Shown here one piece after another: positions 11,178 through 19,787 of a DNA stretch of 44,568 bases. Origin of the DNA: a virus (taxonomy: Duplodnaviria > Heunggongvirae > Uroviricota > Caudoviricetes); IMG/VR virus record IMGVR_UViG_2740892423_000027. The stretch is one strand, 5' to 3'. Below the pieces are notes generated by a model that had not been told where the DNA came from, did not search any database, and saw nothing but the letters and a program-made list of their open reading frames with translations. Positions within the stretch are counted from its first letter, which is position 1. Every line of letters starts with the position of its first letter. Position numbers and translations under genes: made by a program.

Positions 11178-11999
11178 CTATGCTGCTTTCATGGACTCCA
11201 GGAACTTGCGGCCCTTCTGGGTCAGCATGTCCTCGGGAATGCTGCGGAGGTTGTACAGATAGGTGACGTAGCACCGACAGAAAACCTCTTCGCCAGGCTG
11301 CGTAATTTCGTCGAGATAGCCGGCAGGGCCAGCTTTGACATAGCCATTTTTCTGCGCCCAGTTCCCGCGGATGAGATAGATCAGCTTGTCCCTCTCCTTG
11401 TGATCTTCCCGGTAGTCGTACCCTGGCTGGCGCCAGTGGCTATGCCACTCGGCAGCAATCGCGTTGTTGCCCGTCGCGATGATGTTGTCGATATTGGCGA
11501 TCAGCTTATGGCTCTGGTCAATCATCACGCGGCGCGCTTCATAGTCCACCTTCTCGGCGGCCTTCTGAATGTGCGCCGCCGTCTCCCGCATCGTTCCCTG
11601 AATGCCGGTCAGCGCAATGCTGTCTGCTGAGGGAATGCTGCTGGCCCATCCGCTAAACCGCGACAGAGTAGTGTCGATGGCTTTCTTGCGATTCAGCTTT
11701 ATCAGGTCAACGCTGGCCAGGATGCGGCGATCCAGCTCGCTGCGTAACTTCGGCTCCATGTAGTTCAGCGTGAAGCGTGAAAGCCCCTTGTGGCGCTCCA
11801 GCGCTCCAGCCTTGCTCACCTGCAGGTCATAGGTCTTACGCAACCGATCGGACACCATGCTCATGTAGTCGTCATCAGTTTCGCTTTCGGCCGCTTGCCG
11901 GATAATGGCCTGCCATTGCTCCAGCTCCTGCCGCGAGGTGTAGCCATTGCGCAGAAAGAACTTCACCGCCTCGCGTACGGTGCGCGTGAAAGTCTTCAT
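11178..11999 (-). CDS. Head morphogenesis protein (minor head protein, Mu F / SPP1 gp7-like)
   Basis: 273-aa ORF directly downstream of portal with 4-nt overlap; conserved position of F-like morphogenesis genes; family assignment by position and weak recollection. Confidence 0.45.
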   Translation of the reverse strand: MKTFTRTVREAVKFFLRNGYTSRQELEQWQAIIRQAAESETDDDYMSMVSDRLRKTYDLQVSKAGALERHKGLSRFTLNYMEPKLRSELDRRILASVDLIKLNRKKAIDTTLSRFSGWASSIPSADSIALTGIQGTMRETAAHIQKAAEKVDYEARRVMIDQSHKLIANIDNIIATGNNAIAAEWHSHWRQPGYDYREDHKERDKLIYLIRGNWAQKNGYVKAGPAGYLDEITQPGEEVFCRCYVTYLYNLRSIPEDMLTQKGRKFLESMKAA

Positions 12000-13411
12000 A
12001 GCATCATCCCGCCGCCGGGCTCTTCATCCCGTGGCTGTTCAGGCCGGTTAGCCTTTAACGAGTCGATATCGAGATCAAGTCGCTGCGGGAACAGGCTTTC
12101 GTTAGCGTTCGCGTTGGTCTGCGCCCACTCGATAAGAAGCGCGCGGTTCTCATCATCCGTGTTGACCTGCGGGAGAAGGACTTCCAGCATGCTGACGATG
12201 GCCTTAAAGCGGATTTCGTCGACCTTCACTTTTTCGCTTTCCGGCTCTTTCAGGGATGACGGCCAGCGATATTCGAAGTTGTTAATCCATGAGGAGAAAT
12301 ACAGGCTGTACGTGTTTTTAAGCTCCGGGAAGTCAGCACGCAGAGAATTGAAAAACTCAATGCTCCAGGCGCGATACTGGCAAATACGGATGAAATAGTC
12401 ATACAGCGGCTCAAGCCACTCGCGGATGTTGTCGATGTAGACTGCAACAGATCGAGCGTCTTCCGTCCCCTCGCCGAAGCCCTGGGCGAATGTTTCCGAG
12501 TTCAGAATGATAGCCGGCATGTCAGCTGCCGCAGCGATATTCTCCAGAATGTGATTCCGGGAGGAGTCGAGCGGCTTTTCCAGGTTGCTCAGGTCGATGG
12601 ATTCGATGCTGTCATTTGCGCCGATCTGCAGGACCTCGCCTGTCTTCCCTCGCTTCAGCATCATTCGTTTGATGCCGCTGAGCTTTTGCATCATGTTGTT
12701 GACGACTGAGCTCGGTCCCTGAATCTTCGTTACCAGCAAGCCACCCTTCACGGAAACCATGTCATCGGTGCGCATGGTCTGGATGAAGGATTTCAGCGGG
12801 AACAGAGCGCGCTGGTAAACGCTGCGACCGGTAAAGCCAAAGGCAGCAGAGTTATAGGCCAGATAAATCGGGTCCTCGTTCTGTTGCACAACACAGCGGG
12901 ATTTGTGATACGGCTTGCCCGCCACTCTGATCCCGTCGACCTTCTGAAAGTCCTGCGCGTTCGGATCCTGGTTCAGGACGATGCTTCCGGCAGTGTTCAG
13001 CGGGTCGAGAATGTTGAATGTCACGTTGTGCTTATACAGCGTGCGGTAGTCCACCGCAGAGGACGGCTCCTGGTTATCAACCAGCATTGCGATCGCCGAA
13101 ACACCGTAAATGCGAGAGATGCGCGCCGCATTAGCGATGTGCTTATCGGCGCCCAGTGCTTTCCACTCCCGCTCAAATGCATCGCGGAGACGCTGCTCAA
13201 TGCCATACGCCTGCGAAATGTGAACCGTGCGCGACTCGTTCATCGCCATCTTGATCGGGCGATCTACCATTTTCCCGCCCAACGGGTGGAAGAGGTAAAT
13301 CGTTTTGCAGGTCTGATAGCCAGCCGACATACCCGGCTGAATGTCATCGCTGTCCAGGAGCGTGATCAGCTCCGGCGAGCAACTGCCGATTGCGATATCA
13401 TCTTCGTTCAT
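11996..13411 (-). CDS. Portal protein
   Basis: 471-aa acidic protein immediately downstream of terminase large subunit; conserved gene order. Confidence 0.6.
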   Translation of the reverse strand: MNEDDIAIGSCSPELITLLDSDDIQPGMSAGYQTCKTIYLFHPLGGKMVDRPIKMAMNESRTVHISQAYGIEQRLRDAFEREWKALGADKHIANAARISRIYGVSAIAMLVDNQEPSSAVDYRTLYKHNVTFNILDPLNTAGSIVLNQDPNAQDFQKVDGIRVAGKPYHKSRCVVQQNEDPIYLAYNSAAFGFTGRSVYQRALFPLKSFIQTMRTDDMVSVKGGLLVTKIQGPSSVVNNMMQKLSGIKRMMLKRGKTGEVLQIGANDSIESIDLSNLEKPLDSSRNHILENIAAAADMPAIILNSETFAQGFGEGTEDARSVAVYIDNIREWLEPLYDYFIRICQYRAWSIEFFNSLRADFPELKNTYSLYFSSWINNFEYRWPSSLKEPESEKVKVDEIRFKAIVSMLEVLLPQVNTDDENRALLIEWAQTNANANESLFPQRLDLDIDSLKANRPEQPRDEEPGGGMML

Positions 13412-13422
13412 TGGTTTTCTCG

Positions 13423-14754
13423 CTAGAGTGCGTCGCCGCTACCGAACGCGATGATCAGCCCGTAGGTGTAATCATCCAGCAAATCGTCGGCGCGCTTGTG
13501 CGCGTTCTTATCGGCAAGGTGGAATCGTGATACCTGCTTATGCAGATGGTTTGCTGTTTCGCCCTTGAAGACTGCCGTCTTCTCGTAGGCGTATCGGGAT
13601 ATTTTCGCCAGCCCGCGGTAGTGATACCCAGAGGCCATAATGGCGCGCTCGTCCTTCCCTTTGCTGGTCAGGGAGGATTCAATTTTGTTGACCGGCCATC
13701 CCAGGCTCTCGCCTTTCTGCAGAAGGATGCTTCCCATACTGGCGTCTTCAATGAAAACGCCGAGGCTGCCATTTACAGCGACGCACTGGCCGGATAGCTC
13801 ATTCAGCCGGGTGAAAACGGACGGAATCCACTCTTCCAGCAGCGCGCCGTCGATCTGCACCACATCCCAGTCAAGAATGGTCAGGCGCTGAATTCCGGGC
13901 CGGGTGTCTACGGCGTAGTAAACCACCGCCGTGCCGTCGTGATCAGTACCGCCCTTAACGGCGGTATCCATGACAGCGAAAACGGCCTGGCACATCTCAG
14001 GGTAATCGACAGGCTGATCCTGGTTTTCACCCTCGAACCATTTGCGGACGTCGAACAGCGACGCAGCGGACCAGTCGACGAACTCGGCCAGGAACTCCTG
14101 CCGGAAAACGCGAGGATCGTTGTTCTGTCGCTCTTTCTCCAGCTCCTCGGGAGGAACGAAGGGGTTTGATGACGTCGGCGCGTGATGCTCATGGAAGCCG
14201 AGGTCTTTGTTATGGCAGATGGCATAGAAGAAGTTTTCTTCATCCACACCGTCAGGCGTTGAGAATACGTAGGCCCGGCCTTTTGTCGTCAGTAGCGTCG
14301 GCTTAATCGACTTCGGCCAGATTTCCTTCAGCATTTCAGGCGACTTGGTAAAAGCCGCCTCATCGATCAGGATAATTTCGTACTCACGACCACGACCGGC
14401 CAGTTTGTTGTCGTTGGTGACCCAGAAGTCAATCTTCCCGCCGTTCTTCAGCAGCAGGCGCTTTTCCTGCCGGCTGAAACTCTTTTTCAGCGGCAACAGG
14501 ATTTCTTCCAGCTTGTCGTAGATCTCCTGGTACTGGCGATACTCGGCAGTGAAGATACCGACCCGGCCGCCCAGCTCGATGTCCATGCCCGGGCGCCGAA
14601 ACTGCGACGTTGCGTAGGTCACCGCGGCGCTCGACAGCATGAAGGTTTTCCCCCAGCGTCGACCACAGCGAACCGCATTCAACTGGTGATCCCAGGAATC
14701 AGACCAGACCGTTAACTGCCCGTTGTGTAGCGTGGGTAGGTAAATGTCGGCCAT
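13423..14754 (-). CDS. Terminase large subunit
   Basis: 443 aa; N-terminal Walker A-like GRRWGKT; C-terminal nuclease-like acidic residues; follows small subunit gene. Confidence 0.85.
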   Translation of the reverse strand: MADIYLPTLHNGQLTVWSDSWDHQLNAVRCGRRWGKTFMLSSAAVTYATSQFRRPGMDIELGGRVGIFTAEYRQYQEIYDKLEEILLPLKKSFSRQEKRLLLKNGGKIDFWVTNDNKLAGRGREYEIILIDEAAFTKSPEMLKEIWPKSIKPTLLTTKGRAYVFSTPDGVDEENFFYAICHNKDLGFHEHHAPTSSNPFVPPEELEKERQNNDPRVFRQEFLAEFVDWSAASLFDVRKWFEGENQDQPVDYPEMCQAVFAVMDTAVKGGTDHDGTAVVYYAVDTRPGIQRLTILDWDVVQIDGALLEEWIPSVFTRLNELSGQCVAVNGSLGVFIEDASMGSILLQKGESLGWPVNKIESSLTSKGKDERAIMASGYHYRGLAKISRYAYEKTAVFKGETANHLHKQVSRFHLADKNAHKRADDLLDDYTYGLIIAFGSGDAL

Positions 14755-14757
14755 GAT

Positions 14758-15498
14758 TTATCTTCCCGGTATTGGCAGCGAGTTATGCACGACGATCGCG
14801 TTATCCTTGTCGCCGTCTTTCAGTACATCAATTTCGAGCTCAACCTTTTCGGTCGCGGCTTCGCGGTAAGCGGCATCAACGCGCTGCTTGATAATCGCCG
14901 CCTTGGTGTACTCCAGCGACTCAATGCGCGCAGTGTTGCGATGCATGGCTTTCTGCGCCTGAGAGATGAGGTCGTGCAGATCTTTGGCCTGCTCGCTGGC
15001 GGCTGTCTCCAGCTCTGTCTGCCAGCGCCCGATATTCTCTGCCGCTGTCAGGCTCGCCGCTCGCAGCCAGAAAAGCTCATCGTCGAGCGTGAGCATCTGG
15101 GCATCTTCGGTGATGGCGTCAGAGAGCAGCATCCGGCGGCCATAGCCACCATGCTTTAATGCGTTCTGGTTGCCAGGCTGGAAGGCGTTCGTCGGCGGAG
15201 CAGTGCGCGATCCGCGTATCGGTTTCGTTTCTGGAGATTTTGAGTGGGCGCCTGTGTCGGGCTGGTTTTTTTTCACCTCCCCGTTTTTACTGACCCCGCC
15301 TTTCTCCTTCTGCGAATTCGCAGATTTGTTCGCACTTTTTTTTTGCGAATTCGCACCGTAAGTCGTTACTTTGATATAGCGTTTCGCAGATGAGTAATTC
15401 AGTCCCTGCGCTGCGCACCAGTCTTTCGGGGATATTCCTGTTTTGGCATGCTCGGCGAGGAACTGGTGTTGCAGTGCTCCCCAGTCCGGTTTTGCCAT
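14758..15498 (-). CDS. Terminase small subunit (putative)
   Basis: 246 aa, N-terminal HTH-like segment (GISPKDWCAAQGLNYSSAKRY), immediately upstream of large subunit with 3-nt spacing; contains palindromic DNA repeats. Confidence 0.5.
   Translation of the reverse strand: MAKPDWGALQHQFLAEHAKTGISPKDWCAAQGLNYSSAKRYIKVTTYGANSQKKSANKSANSQKEKGGVSKNGEVKKNQPDTGAHSKSPETKPIRGSRTAPPTNAFQPGNQNALKHGGYGRRMLLSDAITEDAQMLTLDDELFWLRAASLTAAENIGRWQTELETAASEQAKDLHDLISQAQKAMHRNTARIESLEYTKAAIIKQRVDAAYREAATEKVELEIDVLKDGDKDNAIVVHNSLPIPGR
15311..15355. repeat. Two identical 12-bp palindromes TGCGAATTCGCA, 33 bp apart, inside terminase small subunit gene (pac-site candidate)
   Basis: Exact copies at 15311-15322 and 15344-15355, separated by a T-run. 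Confidence 0.5.
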
Positions 15499-15558
15499 AG
15501 TCCTTACCTCGTTGTGACATTATCGAGCCACCTCTGGAAGTGGCTCTGTAATGCCCGA

Positions 15559-16143
15559 TCAGTCCTTAATGAACTCTTCCGTGTGAATGCCGATTTCACC
15601 AGTAAGCAGCTGAGCACTGGTTGCGTCGATGTTCACTGATGTATGAGGGTTGGCGTTTTCGTTAAGCCATTTGATTACGGGCTTCACCACGTCTTCGAAG
15701 GAGGAGCTGCGAGCCTTATTAACGTCGGCAACGTGGCAGTCACCAAGGCACGGACCGCGACCAAGGAAGCAGTTAATACAGGCATGGTCATGGATTTTTT
15801 CTGGCGCCTTTGCTGCGCCCGCGCCACCAATGACGGCTCGGCATTTGGAAATCTGAGGCTCAAGGTGGATGGTAATGTCTACCCCCTCACTTTTGTCGCC
15901 ATCATCTTCACACACCGGGAAGCAACGCACACTGTCAACGAGGTGGTCACGAAAGATACGTGTTTCCAGCGAATCGGGTGCTGTAAATAACTCAATATTT
16001 ACTCCGGAACCGAGATTAATTTTCGGTTTATCTCTCGAGTACCCCTCAAACAATAGGCTTTCGACCAGATTGCGGGCGTTGATAATGCTGGAAGGCTGAG
16101 AAAGCTGCAGAAGCTGAACTTTCCAATACTTGATAACTTTCAT
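15559..16143 (-). CDS. Hypothetical Cys/His-rich protein between lysis cassette and terminase
   Basis: ATG at 16143 preceded by AAAGGAAAA; contains CFPVC and HDHACINCFLGRGPCLGDCH clusters suggesting metal binding; family not recognised. Confidence 0.5.
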   Translation of the reverse strand: MKVIKYWKVQLLQLSQPSSIINARNLVESLLFEGYSRDKPKINLGSGVNIELFTAPDSLETRIFRDHLVDSVRCFPVCEDDGDKSEGVDITIHLEPQISKCRAVIGGAGAAKAPEKIHDHACINCFLGRGPCLGDCHVADVNKARSSSFEDVVKPVIKWLNENANPHTSVNIDATSAQLLTGEIGIHTEEFIKD

Positions 16144-16294
16144 GCTGTTTTCCTTTAGGTGTGAGCCTGTCGTACAGGAACGCCGCCCGAGAGAGGTCGC
16201 CACCTTTAACGGCGCTCCTCAGGCTCACGACTGAAAGACTCTCGATGGTTTGCGTGTACGATACGCATTAAAAAGCCCCGCTATTGCGAGGCTG

Positions 16295-16762
16295 TTATTT
16301 CAGGCACTGCGTGGTGATGTATTCCTGCAGGGCTCTCAGGGCTGTTTGGTCGCTGAGGATTCCGGACCGGATACCGAGAACGTTTCGTCCAGCAACTGCA
16401 GAGAGTTCGACGGTGGCATCATTGCCCATGCCGGAGGCGCTGGAGGTTTTGGCTGAGGCTGGCACAGGGCATTTTCCTTTGACGAGCACCCGACCACCAT
16501 TATCAAGCTTGCGCCGAAGAGCATCATTTTCAGCTTTCGCATCCGCTAACTCCTTTGTGTATTTAGCATCGAGTGCATCTGCATCACGCTGGCGCTGCTG
16601 CATGTCAGTAATGGTGGCGTTCACCTTCTCCAGTTCACTGGCCTTGTTATCGCGCTGCTCTTTGTAGGCGATGGCGTTATCACGGTAATGATTAACAGCC
16701 CATGACAGGCAAACGATGATGCAGATAACCAGAGCTGAGATAATCGCGGTTACTCTGCTCAT
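16295..16762 (-). CDS. Rz: Rz i-spanin
   Basis: N-terminal about 85 residues near-identical to lambda Rz ([31 protein letters not shown]...[17 protein letters not shown]); C-terminal half diverges; overlaps R stop (ATGA). Confidence 0.9.
16336..16542 (-). CDS. Rz1: Rz1 o-spanin lipoprotein, embedded in +1 frame of Rz
   Basis: Embedded [24 protein letters not shown] with lipobox Cys and Pro-rich region, matching lambda Rz1 architecture. Confidence 0.8.
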
Positions 16763-17784: not shown

Positions 17785-17860
17785 TGGTGCTGGTTAACGG
17801 ACTTGAACCGCTACCCATTCGCTTACAAGGCGACTGCTCTACCATTGGAGCTAAACCAGC
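17785..17860 (-). tRNA. tRNA-Thr (anticodon UGU), phage-borne
   Basis: Manual cloverleaf: 7/7 acceptor pairs, 4-bp D stem, anticodon stem with loop CUUGUAA, T-loop UUCAAGU, encoded 3' CCA; folded by hand only. Confidence 0.7.
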
Positions 17861-17865
17861 ATGTT

Positions 17866-17940
17866 TGGCGGGACAGCGTGGACTCGAACCACGATAAGAA
17901 GGTTAACAGCCTTCCGTAATGACCTTTATACGACTGACCC
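17866..17940 (-). tRNA. tRNA-Asn (anticodon GUU), phage-borne
   Basis: Manual cloverleaf: anticodon stem GAAGG/CCUUC with loop CUGUUAA, T arm CGUGG-UUCGAGU-CCACG, encoded CCA; one mismatch each in acceptor and D stems. Confidence 0.55.
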
Positions 17941-18004: not shown

Positions 18005-18523
18005 CTAAATGGATAATTGCATGTCAAGGCCTTTAACAGCAACATGCTTAACTTTCTCAACACGTTTACGCATTTTGAAAGCATTTTGCATTGGCTGGTA
18101 CAAAACAAATAACGACGCTTTCAGGATGTCGTCAATTTCGTTTCTACAGGTTGCCAGTGAAGGTTTTCTCCATCCCTCGCCACCACGTCCACACATCTTG
18201 CGTGGCTTTGCAGTCGCGTGATAGTAGGATGCAATTGCTCGCTTAGATGAACCATGAGCGTAGTAGCTTAGGAGGATGCCAAAGGCTTTCTTGTCAATGT
18301 ACATGACGGAATCGACGACCTGAGAAATCAACATTCCATCATCATCATTACACATTGGCCTTGTCATAACTCTTCCCGGCTCTACGCTCTCCATGAACTT
18401 CGCTATTACGCTGCTCATGCGCTTTTCCAGACGACCTGAATAAACCCATGCGCCCCACAGTTCAAGCCAGCCATTCAGCCACTCATGCTGTTCTTTGGTG
18501 AGGTTTAGTTCTCTTATGCCCAC
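18005..18523 (-). CDS. Late-gene antiterminator Q (Phage_antitermQ / QuuD-82-like family)
   Basis: 172 aa with [11 protein letters not shown] and RPMCNDDD motifs resembling QuuD-type Q proteins; canonical position between nin/phosphatase genes and the lysis cassette. Confidence 0.65.
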
Positions 18524-19185
18524 GCGCCTTCTCCCTGTACCTGAATCAATGTGAGGTTTCCGCAGAACACTGCGCCGGTATCGATATACATCTGGTTGGC
18601 AAATTTGAGTGGTTTCACTGCTGGCGTATGACCAAAGATGAACGTGTCCGCGCCTTTGATTTCTTTCACGATCCCGTCTTGTGAGTTGCCGATTCGTTCG
18701 CGGTTCCAGATTACCTGCTGATGATCAACTGGCTTTCCAAACTCGTATTCATCACAAGGATAATCGGCGTGGCAAATGACATATTTTTTACCTTTGCTCA
18801 CCAGTTCGATGATTAACGGAAGTTCTTCTGCTTTATGGGCAAGAGCTTTAGCCAGAATCTCTTTGTCGTAATCGAGATTGAAGAACCAGCCACCGCCATT
18901 AAGCAGCCAGTGATTAACGTTTCCACGCTCTGATAAGCCATCAATCATCATTTGCTCATGGTTTCCACGTACAGCTCTGAACCAGGGGAATGTGATTAAT
19001 TCCAGGCATTCAACGTTCTCTGCACCACGATCAACCAAATCTCCCACCGAGATAAGCAGGTCTTTTTTGTTGTCGAATCCAATCGTATCCAGTTTGTTCA
19101 TCAGGTTCGTGTAGCATCCGTGCAGATCGCCAACTACCCAAATATTTCGGTATTTGCTGCCATCAATTCTTTCGTAGATATTCAT
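18514..19185 (-). CDS. Ser/Thr protein phosphatase (lambda PPase, NinI-like)
   Basis: 223 aa near-identical to lambda phosphatase: [22 protein letters not shown] and GNHE metallophosphatase motifs. Confidence 0.9.
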
Positions 19186-19787
19186 GCAGCCTCACTTCTG
19201 CTGTTTCGCAGTTTTTTAAGTTTCTGTTGATACTCCGCCTTGATGGTCCTGCACTCTTCGACAGTCCAGCGATGGCGGTTATGGTTTGATTCGATTTCGT
19301 CTACTGCTTCCTGCCCGATGCGGCTAATCAGTTCGACGCGATACGGAACGAGATTTCCGCTTTTGTGCTGGTTGCACACCACGCATTGCTTGTGAATATT
19401 GCGTTCATCAAATCGGAGTTGAGGTGCCGCAGCAGTTGTCCGGTAATGTCCGGCATCCCACTGAGCAGACGTGAGCGTTCCGCACGAGATACATGGTAAG
19501 TCGCGGTCTCTTTCTCTGATGAAGGCGTTTACGGCTTGTTGGGCTTGTTTAATCCAGTAACTGCGGTGCTTTAAGGCGAGTTTTCGAATCTTCAGTTTAT
19601 CTTTCTGTTTCTGCTCCTCTCGTCGTCGTTTCTTCTCTGCTGCTTTTTCCGCTTTTTTTCGCTGTTTACTTTGTAGTTTGAGTGCTAACTGAGTTCCGTG
19701 TTCCGGGCAGCACCACCACTGATTTGAGAATGCCGGGTGAAACCATTCCTTGCATATTTTGCATTTCCTTCGCGCTGGTTTAGCCAT
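19182..19787 (-). CDS. ninG: NinG (Rap) recombination protein
   Basis: 201 aa, N-terminus [31 protein letters not shown] characteristic of lambda NinG; ATGA coupling to phosphatase gene. Confidence 0.9.

Follow-up and report, generated by a model that had tools for sequence, protein, structure and literature searches.

A modular Cys/His-containing protein encoded between Rz and the terminase genes of a tailed phage, and its associations with phage sponge domains

HNH endonucleases, for example those of the HK97 gp74 type, adjoin phage terminase genes, and lambda-type morons are exemplified by bor, located downstream of Rz. A third kind of phage protein with which the gene described here has to be compared is the immune-evasion sponge. 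Sequestin sponges are small, mostly stand-alone proteins that were discovered through their fusion to Tad2 and Acb4, the latter corresponding to PF13876, and fusions of Tad2 with Acb4 block Thoeris and CBASS both (Tal et al., bioRxiv 10.1101/2025.07.12.664507).

The window, i.e. the whole stretch of 44,568 nucleotides that was analysed (Caudoviricetes, IMG/VR record IMGVR_UViG_2740892423_000027), carries on its minus strand a gene of 194 codons and a stop, designated ORF194 (15559..16143; ATG at 16143-16141, TGA at 15561-15559). A Shine-Dalgarno sequence, AAGGA, can be read directly on the same strand 7 nt before the ATG (16151..16155). The list of open reading frames also offers a 214-aa reading from an alternative GTG; since all homologues begin with MKVIKYW, the ATG start is favoured. 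Homologues, 276 in number, were found in E. coli, Klebsiella, Citrobacter and Raoultella, and a protein identical to ORF194 (P0001) occurs on 28 contigs. Comparison with one homologue, 87% identical in DNA, gave dN/dS values of 0.21, 0.26 and 0.18 for the parts of the protein termed N, C and Z below (a single pair). The homologues and these values together demonstrate that ORF194 is a real and conserved gene, not a chance reading frame. Its product contains no signal peptide and no membrane segment (the maximum Kyte-Doolittle value in a 19-residue window is 0.8); a membrane or lysis protein was ruled out for want of any hydrophobic segment. A naturally disrupted copy exists as well: P0124, a 152-aa database protein found on 2 contigs, is ORF194 frameshifted inside cassette C, and its tail corresponds to an out-of-frame 59-aa ORF of the window (15684-15863, minus strand).

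ORF194 lies between Rz and the terminase genes, as the preliminary description had placed it. Upstream is Rz (16295-16762, PF03245); downstream follow a gene for a 246-aa protein (14758-15498), called TerS-like from its position only, then TerL (13423-14754, PF03237) and the portal gene (11996-13411, Phage_portal_3, PF06381, E 2e-20), all on the minus strand. The TerS-like protein has no Pfam match and its RefSeq orthologues are hypothetical. In RefSeq the portal orthologues go under the name 'anti-CBASS protein Acb1 family protein', apparently assigned automatically and misleading. In its layout the late region matches that of Shigella phage Sf6. Pfam confirms Q (PF06530) and holin (PF05106), a PR'-like promoter (11/12) is present at 18027-17998, and genes for tRNA-Thr(TGT) and tRNA-Asn(GTT) (17785-17940, minus strand) stand between this promoter and holin, arranged as in phages 21 and Sf6. 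ORF194 is thus located downstream of Q, the PR'-like promoter, holin and Rz.

How ORF194 might be expressed can be judged from its immediate surroundings. A consensus scan, which weak promoters could escape, found no sigma-70-like promoter in the 151-nt leader of the gene. A terminator-like hairpin (8 pairs followed by TTTTT; 16274..16293, minus strand) stands directly after the Rz stop codon, upstream of ORF194; it is the only one, no terminator being found downstream of the gene. This hairpin is absent from a relative in which the position of ORF194 is empty (L001), and a sibling prophage has a similar one in its Rha cassette. In Salmonella, a related gene of the N-Z type shares its first 11 nt with the spanin gene's end, and in Yersinia a Z gene begins 10 nt past the spanin gene. 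Because the scan revealed no promoter belonging to ORF194 and its homologues overlap or abut spanin genes, it is a late-operon gene rather than a classical moron composed of promoter, gene and terminator. The simplest reading is that its expression would be late and Q-dependent, the gene being silent in the lysogen, which would speak against its being a classical moron or a defence gene of the prophage.

Next, we compared the Rz-TerS junction among related genomes, where variants with an empty slot, with Acb2/Tad1, with Rha and with other genes were distinguished. In the window, an inserted cassette of 739 bp (15556..16294, minus strand), which includes the terminator-like hairpin, begins immediately past the Rz stop codon and ends immediately ahead of the conserved GGCATTACAG; ORF194 and its leader are thus accommodated exactly between the Rz stop and the conserved pre-TerS sequence. 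In E. coli ST540 the slot is empty: the Rz stop codon is followed without a gap by GGCATTACAGAGCC..., which is the conserved sequence preceding the TerS-like gene. The flanks are at least 96% identical, yet the slot is either empty or filled with Acb2/Tad1, Rha or another Z-family gene. Its right border is formed by a backbone hairpin, GAGCCAC-N8-GTGGCTC, a perfect 7-bp inverted repeat (15525..15546) located 27 nt upstream of the TerS-like start and conserved in 5/5 slot variants; conceivably it marks a boundary of recombination, acts as a regulatory hairpin or is related to packaging.

A census of 74 analysable viral contigs with related TerS showed the slot to be occupied by Z-family genes in about 22 cases, by Rha (PF09669) in about 11, by KilA-N (PF04383) in about 6 and by GrlR-like genes in 3; it was empty in about 8 and held unknown genes in the rest. 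The GrlR-like proteins (PF16518, lipocalin-type; 106-118 aa) are encoded upstream of TerS at loci L099, L159 and L160. Identical terminases occur with the slot empty or containing Acb2/Tad1, Rha or a membrane protein. The last case is that of the cultured Klebsiella phage RothC, whose TerS and TerL are 97% and 98% identical to those of the window and whose slot encodes a 122-aa membrane protein instead. Conversely, N-Z, C-Z and Z-only genes are found at the spanin-terminase junction of phages whose holin, endolysin, spanin and TerS families differ, and the family is also located beside small subunits of the Terminase_2 and DUF2280 types. The precise insert, the empty or otherwise filled slots, RothC and the frameshifted P0124 together indicate that ORF194 is not tied to the terminase and is an accessory gene dispensable for growth. 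Conservation with the terminase type, suggested beforehand as a check, did not hold, since RothC combines terminases 97-98% identical with a different slot gene and siblings have an empty slot. The preliminary description had also taken absence or disruption of the ORF in infectious relatives without phenotype as a point that would tell against its proposals, and part of this is borne out by the isolated phage RothC. Its alternative of a moron survives in one respect: ORF194 is a discrete accessory insert between conserved genes, its slot being empty or otherwise filled in near-identical prophages. As a late-operon gene for which the scan detected neither an own promoter nor a downstream terminator, it departs from a moron in the other.

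The internal organization of the protein was deduced from an alignment of 24 family members (A1), 166 to 289 aa in length. The first ~81 and the last ~48 residues are conserved, and the members differ widely in which of the middle blocks they possess. Similarity in DNA between the window gene and its relatives breaks at aa ~81-84, ~113-116, ~139 and ~146-147. On the basis of these mosaic breakpoints and of the alignment, ORF194 was divided into four parts, all read on the minus strand: the N domain (aa 1-81, 15901..16143), cassette a (aa 82-115, 15799..15900), cassette C (aa 116-146, 15706..15798) and the Z domain (aa 147-194, 15562..15705). AF2 modelling with the shallow alignment A1 was unusable (pLDDT 50); with A2, which adds distant N-Z and stand-alone Z proteins, both end domains were modelled confidently. 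The N domain (pLDDT mostly >90, block means 81-96) is predicted to be a five-strand beta domain, with strands at residues 4-15, 27-36, 49-53, 61-65 and 71-78; W7, L11, G34, Y35 and P76 are invariant in alignment A5. It is always N-terminal in its proteins (30/30 representatives). The Z domain, assigned to phrog_4621, is acidic (pI 4.6) and predicted to consist of a helix and a beta-hairpin. It is a widespread C-terminal domain, ending at most 3 residues from the protein C-terminus in 124/133 instances. Cassettes a and C were modelled with low confidence (pLDDT 32-64). Cassette a is a variable linker, probably disordered, which is replaced or absent in relatives.

An exhaustive profile search (502 matches at E<=0.001) showed that the modules behave as independent units. 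Z is found as stand-alone proteins of 51-70 aa and also behind many unrelated N-terminal parts, often preceded there by modules resembling Zn-ribbons, and minimal N-Z proteins of 130-155 aa are devoid of any cassette. Further cassettes, B (...EMLEYIKxAIGEGYQPE...CWQWY), D (QEYFPNGGRDWD) and E (FFTIE...), occur alone or in other orders. When cassette a was compared with its counterpart in L017, 10.75 nonsynonymous and 0.25 synonymous differences were counted, the flanking domains showing dN/dS of ~0.2. Such values, from one pair and with small counts, would be compatible with either diversifying selection or no constraint.

The Cys/His clusters had first drawn attention to this ORF. ORF194 contains seven Cys (74, 78, 101, 122, 125, 132, 136) and seven His (67, 93, 118, 120, 137, 167, 187), and the CxxxC and HxHxCxxC...CxxxCH clusters reported for it are indeed present at that spacing, as C74-x3-C78 and H118-D-H120-x-C122-x2-C125-x6-C132-x3-C136-H137. 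The latter is cassette C, a mini-module HDHxCxNCFx4-5CxxxC and putative Zn knuckle (Cys4His2). Among its 63 distinct instances, including the most distant ones, HDH and C-x2-C-x6-7-C-x3-C are kept, so that two CxxC-like pairs at fixed spacing, as expected of zinc knuckles and ribbons, are present. His137 is not conserved, being replaced by N, S, Q, Y or A, and neither is the CxxxC of the N domain, where C78 is Tyr in most relatives and C74 is variable too. Cassette C is an optional element of 25-30 aa: it is absent from P0053, P0096, P0105, P0046 and all minimal N-Z proteins, and it also serves as the N-terminal module of proteins without the N domain. From this pattern, cassette C is probably a small zinc site of the structural Cys4 kind, to which two further His are added. 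The window's Cys/His-rich protein matching a named Pfam family is another one, NinG (PF05766, E 3e-88; 19182-19787, minus strand), whose gene adjoins that of a NinI-type metallophosphatase (18514-19185) and Q.

Searches for known relatives of ORF194 were uniformly negative. No match was obtained in Pfam, NCBIfam or PADLOC at E<=10, HNH, nuclease and defence-system models included, which agrees with the earlier remark that the pattern is not a clean HNH motif and leaves the HNH and defence profiles recommended for checking without a hit. Specifically, Pfam does not match ORF194 with Tad2 (PF11195), Acb2/Tad1 (PF24729), Acb4 (PF13876) or Sequestin (PF21825), and PF21825 was likewise missing from the roughly 90 family members scanned. 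A Foldseek search of the PDB with the model gave nothing at E<=0.001 and no nuclease-like fold, profiles made from the N and Z alignments matched no PDB sequence, and BFVD returned only other uncharacterised small phage proteins. Similarity to DNA-binding families was found neither in sequence nor in fold. The idea that the N domain may be a Lockin-like beta sponge was provisionally set aside, as the predicted structure had no match in the PDB fold search. Cryptic homology of ORF194 to Acb4 or Acb2 was ruled out: when the N and Z profiles were compared by hhalign with Sf6 gp66 and with the Acb2/Tad1 protein of the sibling prophage, the probabilities were at most 0.2%. In PHROGs, two families were matched, both of unknown function, and a literature search with their identifiers gave no mention. 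The modules N, a, C and Z have no Pfam family, no solved structure and no description in the searchable literature. While small modular phage accessory and anti-defence proteins in diversity hotspots are already known, this family and its cassette architecture are new.

The distribution of Z is wide. A search with a profile of Z alone yielded at least 1045 clusters at 90% identity; the best 120 of these are nearly all 51-94 aa long and range from enterobacteria to MAGs of other phyla. Among 50,697 cultured-phage records, Z is found in only 7. Stand-alone Z genes are located also among the small ORFs of early regions and after DnaB.

We then looked for physical connections between the family and proteins of defined role. 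A 168-aa Klebsiella protein, present on 93 contigs, consists of a Tad2-like domain (PF11195, E 3e-22) followed by C and Z, and stand-alone Tad2 versions of 91 aa share a cluster with it. Its gene lies on the reverse strand between TerL and portal of BPP-1-like prophages; in Salmonella, the corresponding slot is occupied by C-Z without Tad2 (82 aa). This accessory slot of BPP-1/epsilon15-like Klebsiella and Salmonella prophages was seen with Tad2-C-Z in L174-L176 (5001-5507) and with C-Z in L166 (4001-4249), and near one such locus there is a reverse transcriptase gene (PF00078). The Serratia protein P0147 combines B-like, C, PF13876 and Z modules. When 69 longer relatives were scanned with Pfam, one PF13876, one DUF5071 and no Tad2 were detected, the Tad2 fusion having been found separately; the N-profile search revealed no annotated fusion partner of the N domain. 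Association exists also at the level of the slot: between Rz and TerS, the sibling E. coli prophage carries an Acb2/Tad1 gene (PF24729, E 5e-17) and Sf6 carries gene 66, a PF13876 member of the Acb4 family.

Most likely, ORF194 is a soluble, non-enzymatic and modular protein; the absence of enzymatic function is suggested by the negative results of Pfam, NCBIfam, PADLOC and of the PDB sequence and fold searches. Our preferred, if tentative, reading is that it is a late-expressed, polyvalent counter-defence protein. This reading is built on association, namely on three independent lines: fusion to Tad2 and Acb4-family domains, a slot shared with anti-defence genes, and a style of evolution that would suit an arms race, seen in the in-frame shuffling of cassettes and in the excess of nonsynonymous changes in cassette a. 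The constant N-terminal beta domain and the constant Z of about 50 aa bracket exchangeable cassettes, in the window a probably disordered linker and a Cys4His2 mini-module probably binding zinc structurally. During lytic growth, each module might capture and thereby neutralise a target, either a component of host immunity or a nucleotide that signals it, in the manner of fused phage sponges. Z might serve these proteins as a common unit of oligomerisation, or might itself be a binding module. Several facts weaken the counter-defence reading. Fusions to known sponges are a small minority in the family; the slot is a general one, receiving Rha, KilA-N and GrlR-like genes too; Z is acidic, whereas sponge pockets are usually basic; and the strong preference of N-Z and Z genes for the spanin-terminase junction could instead mean a role linked to lysis or packaging. 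It is more doubtful still that Z and the enterobacterial N constitute new families of phage immune evasion, genes of the ORF194 type being a combinatorial platform that strings anti-defence modules, Tad2 and Acb4-like sponges among them, into one late-expressed polyvalent protein.

Four other explanations have to be weighed against the counter-defence reading. The preliminary description had thought of a zinc-dependent nuclease, HNH-like, assisting terminase in DNA packaging. A cluster of 4 Cys and 2-3 His in a gene directly upstream of the terminase genes, from a family repeatedly found beside terminases, makes this idea tempting. It is nevertheless extremely improbable: apart from the missing nuclease profiles, the cluster spans a mere 25-30 aa, in which AF2 shows just a 4-residue helix (aa 116-146, pLDDT 45-59) and no beta-beta-alpha-metal fold, it is missing in many family members, and its His137 varies. 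Nor does the gene track terminase type, identical terminases being accompanied by empty or other slots (cultured RothC included) and the same family standing beside unrelated TerS types, so the packaging nuclease was abandoned. If, on the other hand, the position at the junction is itself functional, ORF194 might be an accessory factor of lysis or morphogenesis, acting for instance in lysis timing, in a lysis-to-head expression switch or in packaging. N-Z, C-Z and Z-only genes recur at this junction across differing lysis and TerS families, sometimes overlapping the spanin stop, and about 22 of the 74 related-TerS loci carry a family member there. We consider this unlikely, as close relatives, a cultured phage among them, have nothing or another gene in the slot, stand-alone Z is encoded also in early regions and after DnaB, other members are located on the opposite strand between TerL and portal, and ORF194 has no membrane segment.

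That ORF194 is a regulator or DNA-binding protein comparable to Rha, KilA-N or antirepressors is very unlikely in our estimation. In many relatives the slot is indeed occupied by regulators of this sort (PF09669, PF04383), other proteins often have Zn-ribbon-like modules in front of Z, and the helix and hairpin of Z could dimerise into a small DNA-binding fold; however, no DNA-binding family resembles ORF194 in sequence or fold, and combinatorial shuffling of cassettes together with Tad2 and Acb4-family fusions is atypical of regulators. Much the same low probability is given to a moron expressed from the prophage for the benefit of the lysogen, e.g. in superinfection exclusion or anti-phage defence. 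What speaks for it is that ORF194 is a variable insert in a prophage hotspot and that C-Z and Tad2-C-Z genes run opposite to the structural genes in BPP-1-like prophages, which probably requires a promoter of their own. In the window, however, no promoter was found and a terminator-like hairpin stands upstream; homologues translationally coupled to spanin genes imply late lytic expression; no PADLOC defence model is matched; and the fusion partners are anti-defence, not defence, domains.

Should the association on which the counter-defence reading is built hold, ORF194 would represent a new candidate family of phage counter-defence proteins, directly testable, and an unusually clear case of in-frame cassette shuffling building polyvalent proteins. 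The family is common in prophages of E. coli, Klebsiella and Salmonella and almost invisible in cultured phage collections. Its modules, 50-85 aa in size, could be synthesised cheaply and screened against panels of defence systems. Even if the association is false, a tempting misannotation is corrected, which equates a Cys/His-rich protein next to terminase with an HNH nuclease, and the Rz-TerS junction is documented as an accessory-gene hotspot for Acb2/Tad1, Acb4-family, Rha, KilA-N and Z-family genes.

Compared with the systems named at the outset, ORF194 shares with HNH endonucleases of the HK97 gp74 type the small size, the Cys/His-rich composition and the place beside terminase genes; it differs in having no HNH motif or profile match, in its optional Cys/His module, in lacking linkage to terminase type and in being absent from a cultured relative. 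Like lambda-type morons, it is a non-essential insert between lysis and head genes that varies among relatives, but its strand is that of the late operon, the scan for a promoter belonging to it was negative, and it carries neither signal peptide nor membrane segment. Acb2/Tad1 and Sf6 gene 66 share its slot, within a late operon of like composition (phage 21-like Q, tRNA-Asn, tRNA-Thr, holin, endolysin, Rz), although neither has detectable sequence or profile similarity to ORF194. With Acb4-Tad2 of Pasteurella phage Pm86 the family has in common that several small independent modules are joined in one polypeptide, and relatives of ORF194 indeed carry a Tad2 or Acb4-family domain as one cassette; ORF194 itself is without a known sponge domain, its N, a, C and Z being uncharacterised. 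As for Sequestin (PF21825), none of the roughly 90 members of the ORF194 family scanned matches its profile, and the likeness lies in the pattern: small proteins of phages and prophages, previously of unknown function, mostly stand-alone and also fused to Tad2 and Acb4, a description that fits Z equally well.
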